Origin: a phage | Sequence record: PZ452598.1 | Length of the DNA stretch: 64,000 nt | Strand: one strand, 5' to 3' | Shown: positions 1 through 63,804 of the stretch, in pieces | How the letters are laid out: every line of letters starts with the position of its first letter | Position numbering within the stretch: position 1 is the stretch's first letter | The notes under the pieces: model-generated | The model's database searches: none | What the model was told of the DNA's origin: nothing | Seen by the model: the letters and a program-made list of their open reading frames with translations, nothing else | Made by a program: the position numbers and the translations under genes

Positions 1-76
1 CACGCTTGTAGCCAGCGCGTTTAGAATCACCAACTTTCTTTTCAACTGCTTTCTTTGCTTTAGCTTGTTTTGCCAT
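1..76 (-). CDS. 5' end of an early-region ORF continuing beyond the window start (N-terminus MAKQAKAKKAVEKK...)
   Basis: ATG at 76..74 on minus strand, open to window edge; lies where T4 has 30.9 next to rIII; not in ORF track (partial). Confidence 0.4.
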   Translation of the reverse strand, partial: MAKQAKAKKAVEKKVGDSKRAGYKR

Positions 77-320
77 TATAAATTCTCTTTTAAATGAAAA
101 TGCAGGACTTATTGGCATTGCCTGCGCAAGCCCTCAAGGGGAACATAGGTTTTTGGATATTTAACGACCAGGATAACCATAAACCCGTCATCATTCACAT
201 TCAAGAGGTACACCGTAAAACTGTCGGGGTCTTAAAACTATAATGATTCGCAAATCATTAATCAGACAGTTCGACGGCTCCTCGATTTAGCTCACACTAA
301 GGCAGTGAATCTCCAATAAA

Positions 321-569
321 TTACTTCAGTGTTACCACAAAGTGACGAACTGCTTTTCGTGCAGCAGAAGCCAGAGGCTTAGCATATTTAAGTTCATCTT
401 TTTCCTGAAGCTCAGCAGCTAATGCAGTTTGAGCAGGATTCAGATGTTTGAAATAACGCAGGATTTCAAGAGCTTCGGCTTCAACATCAATAGATGCGCC
501 ATAGTTTTCGTGACCATTATTCCATGCGTTTCGTTGCAGTTCAAGAGCGTGTTGTAATTGTTTAATCAT
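321..569 (-). CDS. rIII: rIII lysis-inhibition accessory protein (82 aa)
   Basis: ORF track 82 aa; length and position next to gene 31 match T4 rIII. Confidence 0.8.
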   Translation of the reverse strand: MIKQLQHALELQRNAWNNGHENYGASIDVEAEALEILRYFKHLNPAQTALAAELQEKDELKYAKPLASAARKAVRHFVVTLK

Positions 570-716
570 TTAAAAATTCTCGTTAGAGATTAAAACTCGG
601 TAGTCACGTTCTTCTGAATTTCATCTTCTTTCGACAGATCTCTCAGTTGTAGACTACCACATAGAATTGTTCGGTTAACTTATTATTCCGACACCCAATT
701 CATATTATTATTTATA

Positions 717-1052
717 TCACTTATAAAGACACGGAATAGCTTTATAGTGACAGGTAACGAATTTTTGTTTAATTTCTTTTGGCTGCTTAAGACCCAGAGC
801 TACAAAAGGATGCGGAACATTTCGAATTTGACCAACTGGAAGAGAAGTCAAATCACCAACTTCGCAGAAACCTTCAGGAACATCAGGACCGACAGAGTGA
901 ACTACACACAGTTCAGGAACTTCACCTTGAACACGTTTACCGATAATAAGTCCTGATTCTGTAACTTCTTCATCACCGGCTTGTGCAGGTTCAGAAACTA
1001 AAATAACATATTCACCGACAGCACGAATTGGTAGCTGTTGTACTTCAGACAT
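717..1052 (-). CDS. 31: gp31 GroES-like co-chaperonin (111 aa)
   Basis: ORF track 111 aa; sequence recognised as T4 gp31; adjacent to rIII. Confidence 0.9.
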
Positions 1053-1108
1053 CGTTTTTCCTTTTTGTTAACAGATGAATTAATAATAACAAATAGTTCT
1101 TAAAGCAT

Positions 1109-1417
1109 TTATTTACCAATAAATTGAAGCAAATGCTCAACTTTCATACCATTAACGGAAATCAATTTGTCAATAGAAAAACCTCGCCACGCACCAAGCT
1201 CAACATCAAATACTGGAATCATGTCAGTAGATTCTTTCCGAGTAGATTCAGTCAATTTGCCAGTTTGCATGGTTGGCATAAAGTCTGCATCACGAGTACC
1301 TTTCATAGTACGAATAGTACCATCAGACTTTTCAAAAACTACGTTTGAAACACCCATGGACAATTTAGTTTTCAAAATTTCACGAATTGCTACTTTCTGC
1401 TCAGTTGTCAGTTTCAT
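1109..1417 (-). CDS. hypothetical protein (T4 31.1 position)
   Basis: ORF track 102 aa; same strand, tightly packed in early cluster. Confidence 0.55.
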   Translation of the reverse strand: MKLTTEQKVAIREILKTKLSMGVSNVVFEKSDGTIRTMKGTRDADFMPTMQTGKLTESTRKESTDMIPVFDVELGAWRGFSIDKLISVNGMKVEHLLQFIGK

Positions 1418-1654
1418 TTATTTACCTATTACAGTTTTAATATGAGTTGTTCCACGTTCTTTAAGGGTGGAAAGTAATTTTTGGCATTTTTCTAAATCAG
1501 ATTTCCAACTATATGGTCTATCAATACAAACCCAATTTGTCTTATAATACTGTTTCCATTTAGAGAAAAAATATTTCTTATACTCTACAGCAAATGAGAT
1601 GTTCTCGTTAGAATAAGAACTAATTGCTGTGAGTTTTACCAAACGAAATTTCAT
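1418..1654 (-). CDS. hypothetical protein (T4 31.2 position)
   Basis: ORF track 78 aa; stop abuts next start. Confidence 0.5.
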   Translation of the reverse strand: MKFRLVKLTAISSYSNENISFAVEYKKYFFSKWKQYYKTNWVCIDRPYSWKSDLEKCQKLLSTLKERGTTHIKTVIGK

Positions 1655-15293: not shown

Positions 15294-15536
15294 TCAAACA
15301 GACTTTTTCACAATTTTCCAATCAGCTTTAAACTGCTCGACGTCAGAATGGTAAATCCAAAATCCTGCGCTTTCTCCGTCTTCATAAAGAGGACATCCAT
15401 CGCATTCATCTTCCCATCCCATATCACGTAAAAGATGTTCAGCTTTTTCAACAAGTTCAGAATCTTTACCGATGATATTAAAATACCATTTACCTCTAAC
15501 TTCTAAATCTTTGATGCTCTGGCGTTGTAATCTCAT
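15294..15536 (-). CDS. hypothetical protein (frd.1 position)
   Basis: ORF track 80 aa. Confidence 0.5.
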   Translation of the reverse strand: MRLQRQSIKDLEVRGKWYFNIIGKDSELVEKAEHLLRDMGWEDECDGCPLYEDGESAGFWIYHSDVEQFKADWKIVKKSV

Positions 15537-16334: not shown

Positions 16335-16377
16335 ATTATTTTCCTCTTTAATTATTAGCAGTATTGCCGATAGTTGT

Positions 16378-16407
16378 ATAGTACCATAAAGCTTTATGCT
16401 TGTAAAC
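16378..16407 (-). promoter_or_regulatory. early promoter-like element with A/T-rich upstream tract
   Basis: member of repeated promoter-leader cassette, upstream of ORF 16107..16334. Confidence 0.5.
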
Positions 16408-16438
16408 CGTTTTGTGAAAAAATTTTTAAAATAAAAAA

Positions 16439-16457
16439 GGGGACCTCTAGGGTCCCC
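16439..16457 (-). terminator. rho-independent terminator downstream of gene 32
   Basis: hairpin GGGGACC-CUAGA-GGUCCCC then U-run on minus strand, about 20 nt past gene 32 stop. Confidence 0.6.
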
Positions 16458-33135: not shown

Positions 33136-33176
33136 TTTCTAATCTCCGTAATTCTGTATCAGTAGTTGATAGTTGT

Positions 33177-33206
33177 ATAGTACCACAGTATGCTTTGGTT
33201 GTAAAC
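33177..33206 (-). promoter_or_regulatory. early promoter-like element upstream of motA
   Basis: member of repeated promoter-leader cassette. Confidence 0.5.
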
Positions 33207-33237
33207 CGTTTTGTGAAAAAATTTTTAAAATAAAAAA

Positions 33238-33257
33238 GGGAGAGCCTCGGCTCTCCC
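33238..33257 (-). terminator. rho-independent terminator
   Basis: hairpin GGGAGAGCC-GAGG-CUCUCCC then UUUUUUAUUUU on minus strand. Confidence 0.55.
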
Positions 33258-36418: not shown

Positions 36419-36590
36419 GCAATAAGTACAGAATTCAAAATTTTCATAATAACCTCATTACAAAAGTAAATGTTAAACAAATTACTGGAATACTAATTAA
36501 CCAAACAAAACACCACCATAATGAACTCATAGTTCAATCTCAGCGATTTTCATTTTATTCTCCAAATCCGTATCAGTAGTTGATAGTTGT

Positions 36591-36620
36591 ATAGTACCAC
36601 GGTCCTTGTGGTATGTAAAC
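36591..36620 (-). promoter_or_regulatory. early promoter-like element
   Basis: member of repeated promoter-leader cassette, downstream of denB. Confidence 0.5.
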
Positions 36621-36636
36621 TGTTTTGTGAAATTTT

Positions 36637-37194
36637 TTAAATGGAAAGATACCATCCGTTGTAGTTGCTTTTTCTTACAACTTTACGAAGGTCTTCTCTG
36701 TCACCGATGAACTTCGGAGTGTACTGGATGACACCTGGATGAATTTCTTTAGTGTTGAATATAATTATACAGTCAGCGACTTGATGATTTAGAATGGGCC
36801 CTAGATTTATTCCAGAACCATATGGATACTCTCCGCTGCATCCCGTTGTTACCGAAATCCAACGTGAGTCAGTTTGATGTGTCTTAACTTCTACACGAAG
36901 CCCGCAGTATTTTGGATGAGCCAATACATCCCATGCATATGTGTACGGATCATCGACATCCTCTTGGCCTTTATTGACATATCCACTCAACCAATCTGCC
37001 ACAAAAAACTCTGCGTACACAGCGATACGGCATCTTTCGATAACTTCTGCCTTATCTTGATTTGGGTTTTGTTTTAAAGAGTATCTTGCAGTATCAGCAA
37101 TTTTGACCTTCATTTCACAGGTCAAGTCACTGTTCGATAGGGTAAATGTCGGAATCTGAAATAGTCTCTGTAACCCAGGATTCGTTTTCTGCAT
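36637..37194 (-). CDS. denB: endonuclease IV (185 aa)
   Basis: ORF track 185 aa; size and position match T4 denB. Confidence 0.8.
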   Translation of the reverse strand: MQKTNPGLQRLFQIPTFTLSNSDLTCEMKVKIADTARYSLKQNPNQDKAEVIERCRIAVYAEFFVADWLSGYVNKGQEDVDDPYTYAWDVLAHPKYCGLRVEVKTHQTDSRWISVTTGCSGEYPYGSGINLGPILNHQVADCIIIFNTKEIHPGVIQYTPKFIGDREDLRKVVRKSNYNGWYLSI

Positions 37195-37256
37195 TTAAAC
37201 TTTCCTTTATGTCGGAATCACCGATATTCATATAAATCATAATTTCTCTTAAAACA

Positions 37257-37274
37257 AAAGGGCCGAAGCCCTTT
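37257..37274 (-). terminator. hairpin GGGC-UUCG-GCCC followed by U-rich tract
   Basis: between ORF 37278..37472 and denB. Confidence 0.5.
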
Positions 37275-37277
37275 ATT

Positions 37278-37472
37278 TTACTTGAATTGTGCAATTCTTT
37301 TCTCTAGACATTCAGCATAAGATTTCATTGAGATGAACTGCGAAAGTAGCAGTTCTTGCTCAACTGCGCTAACTGTTAGAAACTTTGCGCTTTCTAAAAA
37401 TTTGCTCAGTGCATTAATTTTGAGCATTAATTGATCGTATTCTTCTTTTACTCGTGCTTGATAACCTAACAT
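37278..37472 (-). CDS. hypothetical protein
   Basis: ORF track 64 aa. Confidence 0.45.
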   Translation of the reverse strand: MLGYQARVKEEYDQLMLKINALSKFLESAKFLTVSAVEQELLLSQFISMKSYAECLEKRIAQFK

Positions 37473-37486
37473 AATTTTCCTTAGTT

Positions 37487-37502
37487 AAGGGCCGAAGCCC
37501 TT
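37487..37502 (-). promoter_or_regulatory. UUCG-tetraloop hairpin overlapping the rII-fusion stop codon, followed by SD and ATG of next ORF
   Basis: AAGGGC-UUCG-GCCCUU then AAGGAAAAUUAUG; no U-run. Confidence 0.4.
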
Positions 37503-38928
37503 ATTTAAATTGTTCAGTAACGTCTTCAACTACTTCATATTGGCAGGTACGCATTTTAGCATCGTTGTAATCAATCGGAATTGATACTACATCGCGAGGA
37601 TGAACTTTAACTTTTACAACTCGGCTGGTTGAACTACCAAAGTGACGAATATAAGATTTAGAACACACATGCAAACCACGAGAACAAGTTTGTGTATCAT
37701 CGTCATTCACACGAGTACGTGGCATTTTAACTACTTTACCCGGACTGTTATCAAAGGTGTTTGAGTGACAGTCAAAGTAATTGCTGCGAACTACTTTCCA
37801 AGCATAGAAGTAACCATCTTCTGTAATTTCAATATCGTTTGCTACCAAGAAATCAAAGAGTCGAGATACCGCTTTTTGGCTTGGGTTTTCCAACAGATTT
37901 TCCAAGAACGGAAAATAAAATTCAAAGTTTTCGCCTTTTTCCATCGAGTCAAGAATACGATCAACCAAACCAGACCGCAATTCAATATTTTGATAGAACA
38001 AGCTTCCACCTTCAATTCGAACATCGCCGGAAATATATTTTTCAACAGCACGACGAACATTAATTTTTTGTGCCGCTTCTTCCAACTTATCCGCTACAAG
38101 CAGATTAAGAATTTCCTGGAAGTTTGAATGAGTATTAGGAGTTGCGTTATAAGTTACGCCATCAACAGTAATTGAAATGAATTTTTTAGATGCATTCCAA
38201 ATAATGTCAGATTTAGCAACTGGAGCAATAACTGCATCGCTATTAACTTTAACTGTAATATCACCGCTAATAGTCATCAAAATCCGGAAAATAATCATTT
38301 CGCGGTCAAGACCATTAATGATAGCCAAATCTTTGAACGGTCGCATGATATAAGAAACTTCATAAGCAAAGTTTCTAAAGTCTTTTTCTTCAACTGGAAC
38401 TACGATTTCAATACCAGTTTTATCATCTGGACCCATTTCTTTTACGAATGTAGGTTTAATCTGTGGACCATCACCATCCATGTAAGCTACATAACCACGA
38501 ATTTCACCTTTATGATACGAAGTAATACTAAACGTATCAGTATAACTAAACGGAGATTTAGAACCTAAACCAAATCCGCCAATAAAGTCATTAGATTCAG
38601 CTTTAGATGAACTGAAGTATGAATTATACAACCCAGGAGAATTATCATCACCTTGAATATCAAAATCACTCATACCCGGACCAAAATCTCGACAAACAAA
38701 TCGTGGGTCTAAACGTCCAGGAACTTGTATGATAAATTTTTCAGGATTTCCATTAAGTGCATGAGCATCAATCATGTTAGTAATCAATTCACGGACTACT
38801 GCGCGAATCTTGTTTGTATACAAATCAGATGACAGAATTTTAAATACTTTAGGAGATGCTGTGATGCTAAATGCTTTTGATTTAGAACCATTACCAAGAA
38901 TTGTTTCTTTTTCAGTGGTGATAATCAT
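37501..38928 (-). CDS. rIIA/rIIB: rIIA–rIIB in-frame fusion protein (475 aa)
   Basis: ORF track 475 aa; N-terminal GHKL ATPase motifs as in rIIA, C-terminal part recognised as rIIB-like; locus about 1.7 kb shorter than separate rIIA (725 aa) + rIIB (312 aa). Confidence 0.7.
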
Positions 38929-38938
38929 AATTTCCTCA

Positions 38939-39142
38939 TTAATTCATATTACGCTTAATAACTTCAGCAACTTCTAGTAGTTCATCTTTAGTTGCGGTGT
39001 CGGATTGAATTTTATCTCTAATATCTTTAAAGCGGGTTTTAAATTCTTCGGCTTCTCCCATATCGAAAAAGCGTTGAATGATTCTATATTCTCGATGAAC
39101 TGCTTTATCAAAAAGTTCTAAATTTACTTTATATGATTTCAT
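38939..39142 (-). CDS. hypothetical protein (rIIA.1 position)
   Basis: ORF track 67 aa. Confidence 0.55.
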
Positions 39143-39196
39143 TTCAATATCCTCATTTGCCCAATTAATTATACCACATCCTTGTGGTAAAGTAAA

Positions 39197-39541
39197 CTAC
39201 TGGCTCATCCATTCTTTACGAAGGTCAGCATTATCTCCCATGAGCATTTCAAAAAGCTCTTTCCAGTTCTCAGGAAGTTTAACAACATCATATACTGGGT
39301 TTTGAATCATCTCACGATATTCAGATTTTTCCAAAGAGCCAAGTCCCTTAATATAACGGATGCTATGTTTAGGTAGAGCATCTTTGGCACTCTCATATTC
39401 AGCGACTGTATAAAACCATTCTTGTTTTTTACCGACCTGAGCGATGATTACAGGAGTTTTGACAAAGCGAATTCGTCCTTGCTCAAACAATTCTGGCCAA
39501 TTACTAAAAAATCCGAGCAGAGAAGGATAAATAGAACCTAA
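39197..39541 (-). CDS. 60: gene 60 topoisomerase II small subunit, codons 47–160 (after the bypass)
   Basis: track ORF 39197..39490 extended upstream in frame to the landing site; resumes UUA GGU UCU... Confidence 0.92.
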   Translation of the reverse strand, partial: LGSIYPSLLGFFSNWPELFEQGRIRFVKTPVIIAQVGKKQEWFYTVAEYESAKDALPKHSIRYIKGLGSLEKSEYREMIQNPVYDVVKLPENWKELFEMLMGDNADLRKEWMSQ

Positions 39542-39591
39542 TCCAATAATCTCTTAATTATGAGGTATTTCTATAGATAGCCCGAAGGCTA
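39542..39591 (-). other. 60: gene 60 50-nt translational bypass (hop) element
   Basis: take-off GGA 39594..39592, UAG stop 39591..39589, stem-loop with UUCG loop, landing GGA 39544..39542. Confidence 0.93.
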
Positions 39592-39729
39592 TCCATCGTG
39601 ATCTGCGTCTGTCATAATAGCGACATTCGCATAGTTCATTGAAGAGGATTTAATAGAACGACGAACATTGTTCTGCAATTTATATTTTTTCATATCAACG
39701 CTAGAAGAATCAATTTTTACAAATTTCAT
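39592..39729 (-). CDS. 60: gene 60 topoisomerase II small subunit, codons 1–46 (before the bypass)
   Basis: MKFVKIDSSSVDMKKYKL...MTDADHDG then UAG; track ORF 39589..39780 has an upstream extension. Confidence 0.92.
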
Positions 39730-40528
39730 TATACACCTCATAGAACTTTTCATCAGGAATCCAACCGCGTTTAAATTCATTAAATGCTCGGCCGAATAAT
39801 TTTGAATTCACAGTTATATTATTAACTGATTTCCATTTAGCAACTCCCGTTCGTTTATAATGATCGGGGTCATATTTCGTGACGTACCATTCATATAAAT
39901 TTGGTATTAATTTTACAGCCTCTGGATTTGTCGCTGATTTATTATACCATGGTTTCGCTTTTTCAAGTTCAGCTGCTTTTGCAGTAGCAGCAACAGTATT
40001 TCCAATACCAACTAATTTTTCAGTTTTAATGCGTGGATCATTAACATGAAGACGAAAAACTTCGCCCTTTTCATTTTTAAAGCATGTCATGCCTTTAATT
40101 CCAGGAAGCTTAACACCTTTATTAACACCGCACCATTCCTTTGGGTTAAATGATCCTTTAATTAATAAGGCGCATTTACCCGATTTAATACTTCTCATTA
40201 AAACTTTATCTTTCATAAAGTTTTTTGACCATTCAGATACTGCTCTTTGATGGTAAATTCTAGCAATTTCATATAATTTACTAGAACGTAAATATTTTTC
40301 AGTGTTTAACATTCTATTCATCGCATATGCCATTTCACGATTACGATGAATTTTATATAGTAGAAAATGTGCTAAAAAGTGTTCACGAAAAGTCAGTTTC
40401 ACCAAATTTTCTTTATCATCAGAACCTCCCATTGATCTTGGAAGGATATGATGAATTTCACCCTTAAATTTAGAAACGCGGGTTTTACCCCGCACTATTA
40501 AGTCATTATAGATTTTTTCGTAATTCAC
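39710..40528 (-). CDS. mobA: free-standing HNH homing endonuclease (272 aa)
   Basis: ORF track 272 aa; HNH motif HHILPRSMGGSDDKENLVKLTFREH; overlaps 39 end and 60 start. Confidence 0.8.
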   Translation of the reverse strand: MNYEKIYNDLIVRGKTRVSKFKGEIHHILPRSMGGSDDKENLVKLTFREHFLAHFLLYKIHRNREMAYAMNRMLNTEKYLRSSKLYEIARIYHQRAVSEWSKNFMKDKVLMRSIKSGKCALLIKGSFNPKEWCGVNKGVKLPGIKGMTCFKNEKGEVFRLHVNDPRIKTEKLVGIGNTVAATAKAAELEKAKPWYNKSATNPEAVKLIPNLYEWYVTKYDPDHYKRTGVAKWKSVNNITVNSKLFGRAFNEFKRGWIPDEKFYEVYNEICKN

Positions 40529-46134: not shown

Positions 46135-47454
46135 TCATACATAAAACACATCATAACGACCACGGGTGACACCAACATAAAGAAGTTGTTGAGCTAATTC
46201 AGCATCTGCATAATGAATACAAGGCGTATAAATGAAAGCACGGTCTACAGACATACCCTGCGCTTTATGGAATGTTGATGCAGGAAGTGCTTTCACTTTA
46301 CTAAACTGTGATTTAGCATCCCAAAAATCACTCCACGGAGCTTTTCCGCCTTTGTTCCAATTTTTATAAGTTTCTGCTGTTTTACCTAAAAATAGGTTAA
46401 ACTTATACAATTCTTCGTCAGATGAAATTATTTTAATCTTTTCACGATAATATTCATCATCGCCATAAGTTTCTACTGTTAAATCCCAATGACGAATTAG
46501 ATATTCTCCAGGAACACCACGGGCTTTAACAAACGTTGATGTATACTCTGCTTCTATAATACGAACTAATTGTCCGTTATTAAAAATAATTTCTGACACA
46601 GGCTTTCCATCAATTTTATATGTTTTAATTAATGGTTCCTGCATTACAATAATTTCACCGACAATAAAATCTTTATCAGTTTCAAAAATCTTTTTACGAA
46701 TAATGCTATTTAACTTGTCAACAGATTTATTCGTAAATGCCATTACGCGATTTTCAAACAAATCATCTAGTGATTTGACGATTGAAAAATAATTTACCAT
46801 AAAATCGCGTAAAGCGGTATCACCAGTAAATCCACGTACTCCATGCCCGTCAACAACTTTATCATAAATCCACTTACCGTTGCGAACGTCAGTAGCTACA
46901 TCAATAATAGGAGCATTACTGCGTTTAACTTCAGTGAGTTCACACTGATAAAAATCTTTATGTGTAAAGAATGGACTGATATAAGCAGTATTTTCTCCTG
47001 GGTCAACAGGTCTGATTTGCTTATTATCCCCTATTCCAATTATAGTACACCAAGGTGGAATAGTTGAAAGCAGAATTTTAAATAGCTTTCTATCATACAT
47101 TGACACTTCGTCGCAGATTAATACTCTGCATTTGGCTAAATCAGGTACTTCTTTTTGTTCAAAAAGAACATTTTCTTCATATGTTACTGGGTTAATTTTA
47201 AGAATACTATGAATAGTACTCGCTTCTTTCCCTGATAGTTTTGAAAGAATCTTTTTAGCTGCATGTGTAGGAGCTGCTAAAATAATACCAGTTTCACCCG
47301 TAGATATTAAAGCTTCAATGATGAACTTAGTAAGAGTAGTCTTACCGGTACCAGCAGGTCCATTAATAGTTACATGATGTTTCTTTTCTTTAATAGCCTT
47401 CATAACAATGTTAAAGGCATTTTTCTGGCCTTCGGTCAAATCATCAAATGTCAT
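46135..47454 (-). CDS. dda: Dda SF1B DNA helicase (439 aa)
   Basis: ORF track 439 aa; Walker A GPAGTGKTT. Confidence 0.93.
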   Translation of the reverse strand: MTFDDLTEGQKNAFNIVMKAIKEKKHHVTINGPAGTGKTTLTKFIIEALISTGETGIILAAPTHAAKKILSKLSGKEASTIHSILKINPVTYEENVLFEQKEVPDLAKCRVLICDEVSMYDRKLFKILLSTIPPWCTIIGIGDNKQIRPVDPGENTAYISPFFTHKDFYQCELTEVKRSNAPIIDVATDVRNGKWIYDKVVDGHGVRGFTGDTALRDFMVNYFSIVKSLDDLFENRVMAFTNKSVDKLNSIIRKKIFETDKDFIVGEIIVMQEPLIKTYKIDGKPVSEIIFNNGQLVRIIEAEYTSTFVKARGVPGEYLIRHWDLTVETYGDDEYYREKIKIISSDEELYKFNLFLGKTAETYKNWNKGGKAPWSDFWDAKSQFSKVKALPASTFHKAQGMSVDRAFIYTPCIHYADAELAQQLLYVGVTRGRYDVFYV

Positions 47455-60294: not shown

Positions 60295-60960
60295 TTATAG
60301 TAGTGTTCTTGTTCCACGAAATACTTCGAGCATTCTTGCATAAGATTTATTTGGAAATCCAGCTTCAATTGCTAATTTTTTAAGCTTAATAGCACCGGGT
60401 TTTCCAGAGTTTTCCCATATTTCTTTAATCTTTTCAATGTTATCCCACATTATTGGGTCACGTTTATGTGATGGTTTATTTCTATTATAACCATATGGAT
60501 TATTAAGCAAAGCTTCTTTTCGTTTTGCTTTAGTTTCTTCTGACTGCTTTTTGCCTAGCTGGGCTTTCCGGCAAACATCACTAAATCCAAGATGTTTTGG
60601 TTTTCCTTTTTGAGCTTTTGAAATTTTTTCTTTGGTTTCTGATGAAACTCTATAACCAATTCTTCTACGACCCTCTCCACCAATTTTTAAATTATAAGTC
60701 ATAGGATCATTTACCACATCTATTGTTACTAATTCTCTTTCAGCATCACGGGCTGATTTAAAATCTTTATAAAACCCAAGAATGCTTAAATTAAAATTTT
60801 TCTTACCATACTTTTTCTTGGCTTGTGCTAATAAAGTTCCTGATCCCATATAACCATCATTTAAATCATCGGTTGAATGAGTTCCATAGTAAATTTTATT
60901 ATTAACTAAATTAGTTATAACATAAGTATAATTATATTTCTTTTCTTTATGTCTTTTCAT
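60295..60960 (-). CDS. segA: SegA GIY-YIG homing endonuclease (221 aa)
   Basis: ORF track 225 aa trimmed to MKRHKEKKYNYTYVITN...; GIY-YIG motif. Confidence 0.78.
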   Translation of the reverse strand: MKRHKEKKYNYTYVITNLVNNKIYYGTHSTDDLNDGYMGSGTLLAQAKKKYGKKNFNLSILGFYKDFKSARDAERELVTIDVVNDPMTYNLKIGGEGRRRIGYRVSSETKEKISKAQKGKPKHLGFSDVCRKAQLGKKQSEETKAKRKEALLNNPYGYNRNKPSHKRDPIMWDNIEKIKEIWENSGKPGAIKLKKLAIEAGFPNKSYARMLEVFRGTRTLL

Positions 60961-63356: not shown

Positions 63357-63737
63357 TCACTTAGTCAAATTTTTTACACATGAATTATAAGAATTCACTA
63401 CATACTCCATCGGAGCGTTTTTACCTGTACGCCACTGGTAATTATTAGCCCAATTTGCCCAAAGCTCAGCGCAGTAGTTTTCAATTTTTTCTTCGCGTGT
63501 AATTACATCTGAATTACGATATGCTTGAGCAGATTCATCTGGACGAATAGCTTCGTCAAAATTCGCCTGCATTTGTTCTACTGTCTGTTTTGGAGCTTCT
63601 TTATAACACTTGACATTAGGATTATAAAATTTGCTTGAACAGTTTACAATTTTTCCTACATCAGACTGATTTACTACCGGTCCTTGAGCTACACAACCAG
63701 CAAGACCTAATGCAATAACCAAAATAGCGATTTTCAT
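63357..63737 (-). CDS. hypothetical lipoprotein (imm.1 position)
   Basis: ORF track 130 aa trimmed to MKIAILVIALGLAGC (lipobox). Confidence 0.55.
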   Translation of the reverse strand: MKIAILVIALGLAGCVAQGPVVNQSDVGKIVNCSSKFYNPNVKCYKEAPKQTVEQMQANFDEAIRPDESAQAYRNSDVITREEKIENYCAELWANWANNYQWRTGKNAPMEYVVNSYNSCVKNLTK

Positions 63738-63774
63738 TTCATTCTCCAAATCCGTATCAGTAGTTGATAGTTGT

Positions 63775-63804
63775 ATAGTACCATGGAAGAACAGTCTTGT
63801 AAAC
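63775..63804 (-). promoter_or_regulatory. early promoter-like element
   Basis: member of repeated promoter-leader cassette. Confidence 0.5.

Follow-up and report, generated by a model that had tools for sequence, protein, structure and literature searches.

The 64,000-nt stretch of phage DNA studied here (PZ452598.1, hereafter the window) very probably comes from a stock of phage T4 in which the rII locus has a deletion-fusion allele like that of r1589 (r1589 type). At the rII locus a single open reading frame (37501..38928, minus strand, stop codon included) starts with ATG and encodes a chimeric product of 475 aa and 53.6 kDa. This product is formed by residues 1-210 of rIIA, eight frameshifted residues (MIIFRILM) and residues 56-312 of rIIB (210 + 8 + 257 residues). 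The locus has all the structural features of the in-frame rIIA-rIIB fusion deletions, a textbook class that is already known (r1589 type), and it is not a new biological system. An earlier note on this DNA had described a single 475-codon reading frame in a T4 background, with about 215 residues of rIIA including ATPase motifs at its N-terminus and about 255 residues of rIIB at its C-terminus, placed between rIIA.1 and the denB side. This description holds in our analysis. The reading frame is real, residues 1-210 agree fully with T4 rIIA and the last 257 with T4 rIIB 56-312, and the quoted motifs are present at residue 47 (ELITNMIDA, N box), residue 81 (DFGPGM, DxGxG) and residue 117 (GGFGLGSKS, G2). 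The terms 'laboratory derivative' and 'r1589 type', which the earlier note had also used, are ones that we infer.

The three parts of the gene were assigned by sequence identity. The rIIA codons 1-210, which carry the GHKL/Bergerat ATPase motifs, lie at 38299..38928 on the minus strand and are identical to T4. They are followed at 38275..38298 (minus strand) by eight shifted-frame codons of rIIA-derived DNA, ATG ATT ATT TTC CGG ATT TTG ATG, located between a one-base deletion and the junction of a large deletion. The rIIB frame is then entered at Thr56 (ACT ATT AGC...), and rIIB codons 56-312 together with the stop codon occupy 37501..38274 on the minus strand, again identical to T4. Residues 219-475 of the fusion product correspond exactly to rIIB 56-312. 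Since the identity of each half to its T4 gene is 100%, chance resemblance is not an issue.

The window comes from T4 itself and not from a T4 relative. This is clear because T4 record OZ035787.1 aligns with the 64-kb window in two collinear blocks of 99.98-100% identity, separated from it by only 3 SNPs, and because the gene order denB, denB.1, rII, rIIA.1, 60, mobA, 39 agrees with that of AF158101. The rII lesions are the only indels against OZ035787.1 in the window. A megablast search of 50,697 phage records with positions 36600-39600 also matched OZ035787.1 (99.9% identity), in two pieces which take up 4,701 bp of the record for a query of 3,001 bp. All neighbours of the fusion gene are in place. 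Upstream is the intact rIIA.1 (38939..39142, minus strand, 67 aa; Pfam T4_RIIA1, E = 2e-33). Downstream is the intact denB.1 (37278..37472, minus strand, 64-aa ORF), followed by denB (36637..37194, 185-aa ORF). Two of the SNPs are private missense changes, Frd.1 S11L at 15505 and SegA G98R at 60669, which no other sequenced T4 record contains. They indicate a lineage apart from the sequenced T4 stocks, without dating it. The feature table of AF158101 contains no mutant or deletion annotations.

A comparison with intact T4 shows that exactly 1,700 bp are missing from the locus, the sum of a 1,699-bp deletion and a 1-bp deletion. The earlier note had proposed that about 1.7 kb is missing, with a junction near 38255..38300, and had suggested an alignment to reference T4. 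In this alignment, blocks of near-identity are found on either side of the missing segment; the reference locus exceeds that of the window by 1,700 bp and is not of equal length, so the proposal stands. According to the alignments to OZ035787.1 and AF158101, the 1,699-bp deletion corresponds to AF158101 168739..168903 plus 1..1534. Alignment to the intact locus places the junction at 38262..38274 with the breakpoint between 38274 and 38275, inside the proposed interval. The junction lies inside a 7-bp microhomology, TAATAGT (38268-38274), that the two parental sites share. This microhomology is embedded in an imperfect repeat with 12 of 13 matching positions, of which the rIIB copy reads CACCGCTAATAGT and the rIIA copy CACCGTAATAGT. 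As the window has the rIIB version of the repeat with its extra C, the crossover can be placed within TAATAGT. The deletion spans the cistron divide, so that both the rIIA stop codon and the rIIB start codon are gone. On the rIIA side it removes codons 219 onward, the stop codon and the intercistronic region, and on the rIIB side the ribosome-binding site, the start codon and the first 55 codons.

The second lesion is a 1-bp deletion at 38297..38298, where AA becomes A on the plus strand (AF158101 1557/1558). On the coding strand it removes one T from rIIA codon 211, ATT, and changes GAA ATT GAT to GAA ATG AT. The site is 23 nt from the deletion junction and lies 5' of it in the gene. The start codons of rIIA and rIIB are 2,189 nt apart, and an in-frame fusion thus needs a deletion length of 2 mod 3. 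The large deletion of 1,699 bp is 1 mod 3, while the total of 1,700 nt is 2 mod 3 and restores the rIIB frame, so that the two lesions form a compensating frameshift pair. When we simulated the 1,699-bp deletion alone, the product read ...DFDDY and ended at a TAG codon at the junction (GAC TAT TAG), a truncated rIIA of 220 aa. The simulated one-base deletion alone, in the wild-type context, gave a truncated rIIA of 222 aa. Only through the additional one-base deletion does the frame stay open all the way between the start of rIIA and the stop of rIIB. The earlier statement that the frame is preserved is thus correct for the final reading frame, but not for the large deletion by itself, which is out of frame and runs into TAG at the junction.

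The one-base deletion is the sole small indel against T4 in 64 kb, and the probability that it would fall within 23 nt of the junction by chance is about 7e-4. A link between the two lesions is clear, be it through the mechanism or through selection. The large deletion would have arisen via short-homology (illegitimate) recombination or replication slippage. T4 deletions usually form between homologies of 2-10 bp (Srikant et al. 2022, PMC9391042). The one-base deletion may have come from the same error-prone event or may have followed as a separate second step. With the large deletion alone, rIIA translation would have ended at the junction TAG and the rIIB body would have stayed untranslated. 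The one-base deletion shifts the ribosome, which enters the rIIB frame after eight missense codons. No copy of AATAATCATTTC with at most one substitution, which could have served as donor for the one-base deletion, was found in the rII locus. A point against our explanation is that no obvious selection accounts for the fixation of a second, frame-restoring lesion in a phage that is rIIA-null.

This arrangement recalls the suppression described by Crick and Brenner, in which FC0-type plus and minus mutations in rIIB are paired and a short missense stretch is tolerated. In both cases two frame-breaking lesions cancel each other and a short missense stretch lies between them. In contrast to those pairs, one partner here is not a change of a single base but a deletion of 1,699 bp, and the shifted stretch lies in the rIIA-derived joint and not in the B1 segment.

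Against the PHROGs profiles, residues 1-211 of the fusion product match positions 1-206 of 725 in RIIA phrog_612 (E = 2e-109), and residues 228-475 match RIIB phrog_609 (E = 9e-145). The Pfam family HATPase_c_3 gives 22.7 bits on residues 43-143, below the cutoff of 25 bits. Distant RIIA PHROGs match rIIA residues of about 8-199, which lie within the 210 retained residues. Residues 211-725 of rIIA are absent, a loss of 515 of the 725 residues (71%). The rIIA part is a fragment and does not have the complete 725-aa rIIA architecture. On the rIIB side, the distant RIIB PHROGs 36818, 3803, 11221 and 2886 match within the retained portion, and the rIIB core seen by such distant families (rIIB 161-312) is intact. 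What is deleted from rIIB is its helix-turn-helix domain (residues about 7-50) together with its own translation start. In Pfam, residues 1-60 of rIIB are recognized by HTH_7 (27.9 bits, cutoff 23.8) and by HTH_28 (26.7 bits, cutoff 25). A natural rIIB variant of 310 aa (P0002) is without residues 57-58, right at the fusion point, and this suggests that the fusion point may lie in a linker that tolerates changes in length. The allele also suggests that the portion of rIIB classically seen as dispensable forms a separable helix-turn-helix domain of its own. No solved structures matching the product were found.

The fusion gene has lost the upstream signals of rIIB. The promoter of rIIB itself sits in the last 1,534 nt of rIIA, which are deleted here. 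With these signals gone, the rIIB body would be made only within the chimera and from the signals of rIIA, that is, the chimera would be expressed only from the rIIA promoter and ribosome-binding site. A candidate promoter upstream of rIIA.1 and rIIA is found at 39168..39196 (minus strand), the best sigma-70-like match with TTTACT-17-TATAAT and a TG element. It is a match to the consensus, and its role for the fusion gene is putative. With 515 of 725 residues missing, the rIIA function would be lost. The rIIB function is probably kept at least in part, since only the separable N-terminal helix-turn-helix domain is missing and the conserved core is intact; this expectation is based on the loss of only a separable domain and on the analogy to r1589. 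The eight missense residues and a foreign N-terminal domain of 210 aa could also impair rIIB function. For a phage with this allele we predict r-type plaques on E. coli B and exclusion by lambda RexAB. We also predict complementation of B-null testers and not of A-null testers.

Champe and Benzer in 1962 and Crick, Barnett, Brenner and Watts-Tobin in 1961 reportedly worked with r1589. In this mutant A has lost its end and B its beginning, and one polypeptide is made with B in phase with A. The A function is lost, and the B function is governed by the reading frame that the A fragment sets. The present allele is alike in that a deletion crosses the rIIA/rIIB divide and the B body is in phase with an A fragment. 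It may differ in that 71% of rIIA and 55 rIIB codons are missing, and in that the frame needs a one-base deletion and a stretch of eight shifted codons. In the classical genetic maps r1589 deletes only the distal part of A, which stands against an identity with the present allele, where 71% of rIIA is absent. Distances on a genetic map do not have to scale with physical ones.

A second candidate is a culture-collection T4 in which whole-genome sequencing revealed that the rIIA and rIIB ORFs are fused (Maffei et al. 2021, PMC8594841). This phage forms no plaques on a host expressing rexAB, and the fusion is likened to r1589 and called 'apparently hypomorphic'. It shares with the present allele the T4 background, one fused rIIA-rIIB frame and an r1589-like layout, and its RexAB sensitivity is the phenotype that we predict for the present allele. 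The text and supplements of PMC8594841 used here give neither coordinates nor an accession for the fusion. It is possible that the present allele is the one of this culture-collection phage. In the literature searched for a name of the allele, this BASEL paper alone was relevant, and an omics paper on DSM 4505 is silent on rII lesions.

The narrower version of our explanation is thus that the allele in the window is Benzer's r1589 itself or that of the culture-collection T4 of Maffei et al., and we regard this as quite possible, if somewhat short of likely. The architecture agrees, with a deletion over the divide, an A fragment in frame with B and the start of B missing. Such a fusion does exist in a culture-collection T4 that is RexAB-sensitive (S5 Fig of PMC8594841). 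The two private SNPs are consistent with a separate, old laboratory lineage. Against a link to a named allele is that the junction occurs in none of the sequence collections searched. In INPHARED, none of the 499 matching records covers at least 80% of a 301-bp probe for the junction. An exact 33-nt probe found nothing in IMG/VR and the JGI metagenomes, and the exact 475-aa product is not on record in the protein collections by exact look-up. No r1589 sequence was found in INPHARED, IMG/VR, the JGI metagenomes or the protein collections. The shorter T4 records OZ209023 and OZ209057 were considered as carriers and rejected; they are alpha-gt and beta-gt mutants with rIIA intact.

Alternatively, a recent spontaneous r mutant could have taken over an ordinary T4 stock, with the fusion in frame by coincidence and the two lesions produced in one complex event; the allele would then be no historical one. 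Laboratory phage stocks accumulate r mutants, as is generally known. The absence of the junction from all databases searched would also fit a recent origin, and so would the microhomology at the junction, which is typical of spontaneous T4 deletions (PMC9391042). Evolved T4 lines contain short-homology deletions, including deletions across rII, and such phages do not grow on lambda lysogens (PMC9391042). The deletions of Srikant, Guegler and Laub 2022 resemble the present one in their very short direct repeats and in the loss of rII function (PMC9391042). The deletions in those lines are large, take out all of rII together with its neighbours and compensate genome amplification (PMC9391042), whereas the present deletion lies within two genes and creates an in-frame chimera. 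Several points stand against a recent mutant. A random deletion would be in frame in one third of cases, and a nearby one-base deletion would not be expected (about 7e-4 by chance) and has no local template sequence. Two lesions that jointly restore the frame look selected or screened for. We therefore hold a recent takeover to be possible but on balance doubtful.

An artefact of assembly or sequencing, namely a collapse across the repeat with or without an indel error in the consensus, is very improbable. Both rII lesions are read from one assembled sequence, and single-base indels are a common type of error. However, the repeat has 7 exact bp (12/13 when imperfect) and is far too short for an assembly collapse, the remainder of the 64 kb is free of indels against T4, and an erroneous indel that falls 23 nt from the junction and also restores the frame is very unlikely. 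Little probability is likewise left for a deliberately engineered rII deletion made by CRISPR or recombineering. Engineered T4 deletion mutants do exist in the databases, as the alpha-gt and beta-gt records mentioned above show. In the present case, however, the endpoints fall within the two genes, at a natural microhomology rather than at boundaries chosen by design, no scar or marker is present, and the frame requires the extra one-base deletion.

The last alternative, a natural single-gene rII architecture as in a wild T4-like phage, is effectively refuted for this T4 window, in which the two halves are 100% identical to T4 genes with eight frameshifted codons between them. With its 1,055 positions, the profile of PHROG 609 runs collinearly through rIIA and on into rIIB, which implies that some phage records hold a full-length single rIIA-rIIB protein. 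Such proteins resemble the fusion product in having rIIA and then rIIB in one polypeptide, but they would be of about 1,050 aa with both parts complete, whereas the fusion product has 475 aa and is without most of rIIA and the rIIB helix-turn-helix domain. We looked for a single natural protein collinear with the fusion, the finding that the earlier note had named as contrary to its view. No protein over more than 55% of the reading frame was found among the 120 best matches listed from 5.8 billion clusters, and the best matches were the 312-aa rIIB (54-55% coverage) or the 725-aa rIIA (45% coverage). A protein of 526 aa (P0004) that was considered as a collinear homologue is a frameshift-truncated rIIA. 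At the DNA level, 262 of the 50,697 phage records in the megablast search cover at least 80% of 36600-39600. Each of the 40 among these 262 that are listed aligns in 2-3 pieces, which extend over 4.6-4.9 kb and fit two genes; rIIA and rIIB are separate wherever they are annotated among these listed matches, and the fusion junction was found in no record.

A T4 stock with an r1589-type deletion-fusion thus remains the best explanation of the window. We also suggest, tentatively and as an unlikely case, that r1589, perhaps handed on by a culture collection under the name 'T4', could have its first retrievable sequence in the window, and that r1589 is a compound lesion. If this is true, the classic fusion with which reading-frame continuity and the concept of nonsense were established would be a 1,699-bp deletion at a microhomology, out of frame by itself, whose rescue came from a one-base deletion 23 nt upstream. 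The 'dispensable' B1 segment of rIIB would then be a discrete N-terminal helix-turn-helix domain (residues 1-55). The case has a modest historical and teaching interest, as one can follow at base resolution how a deletion and a frameshift compensate for one another. Its main value concerns provenance and quality control. A 'T4' stock or assembly with this allele is rII-defective. This bears on experiments with lambda RexAB or other defence systems and on those that concern lysis inhibition and plaque morphology, and automatic annotation would report the 475-aa product as a spurious 'new' protein.

In T4 gene 60 (39197..39780, minus strand), the window retains an intact 50-nt coding gap for translational bypass, at 39542..39591 on the minus strand. 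Its take-off GGA occupies 39592-39594 and its TAG stop 39589-39591, with the landing GGA at the end of the coding gap. Because of this 50-nt gap, gene 60 appears as two separate entries in the ORF list. The neighbouring mobA (39710..40528, minus strand) is one intact ORF of 272 aa encoding an HNH homing endonuclease, and it overlaps the end of gene 39. In AF158101, the old T4 reference, the same stretch is annotated as gp60.1 and a 'MobA pseudogene', and its comparison with the window reveals many single-base indels there, whereas the window agrees with the modern T4 records OZ035787, OZ209023 and OZ209057. The pseudogene call looks like an error in AF158101.

Three single-base differences are observed between the window and OZ035787.1, an intact T4 record. 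Two of them, 15505 G>A (Ser11Leu in Frd.1) and 60669 C>G (Gly98Arg in SegA), are seen in no T4 record of the phage collection, and they could be used as lineage markers of the source T4 stock. The third, in dda at 46706, is peculiar to OZ035787.1, since the window agrees with AF158101 at this position.

Two dispersed repeats are also present. Copies of a 58-bp direct repeat, identical at 57 of 58 positions, are located at 36542..36599 and 63726..63783, with about 27 kb between them. Read on the minus strand, this repeat spans a leader, a Shine-Dalgarno sequence (GGAG) and the opening codons ATG AAA ATC GC of two small ORFs, both beginning with MKIA. The repeat appears to be a duplicated expression signal together with the start of a signal peptide. 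Self-comparison through the T4 reference detected a second repeat of about 83 bp (16369..16447 and 33168..33248), with 89% identity and small indels.

Around the rII fusion ORF, two copies of a GC-rich hairpin with the core GGGCCGAAGCCC are observed, one directly downstream of denB.1 (37257..37274) and the other directly downstream of the fusion ORF (37486..37503), where it overlaps the stop codon of the latter. They are probably intergenic terminators or RNA-stability hairpins, which are common in T4.

The fusion ORF (37501..38928) matches the 'RIIB' profile PHROG 609, which has 1,055 positions and is also matched by T4 rIIA at positions 19-310 and by T4 rIIB at positions 751-1049. Such a collinear arrangement of rIIA and rIIB implies that single full-length rIIA-rIIB proteins of about 1,050 aa would be present, or annotated, in some phage records; these entries may be genuine natural fusions, or they may be artefacts of annotation or sequencing. 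A natural rIIB variant of 310 aa from public assemblies (P0002) lacks Ile57-Ser58 (KVT--GDITV). Its gap corresponds to about 38266..38271 of the window, the exact point where the fusion enters rIIB. This suggests that the rIIB segment following the N-terminal HTH domain is a linker of variable length.
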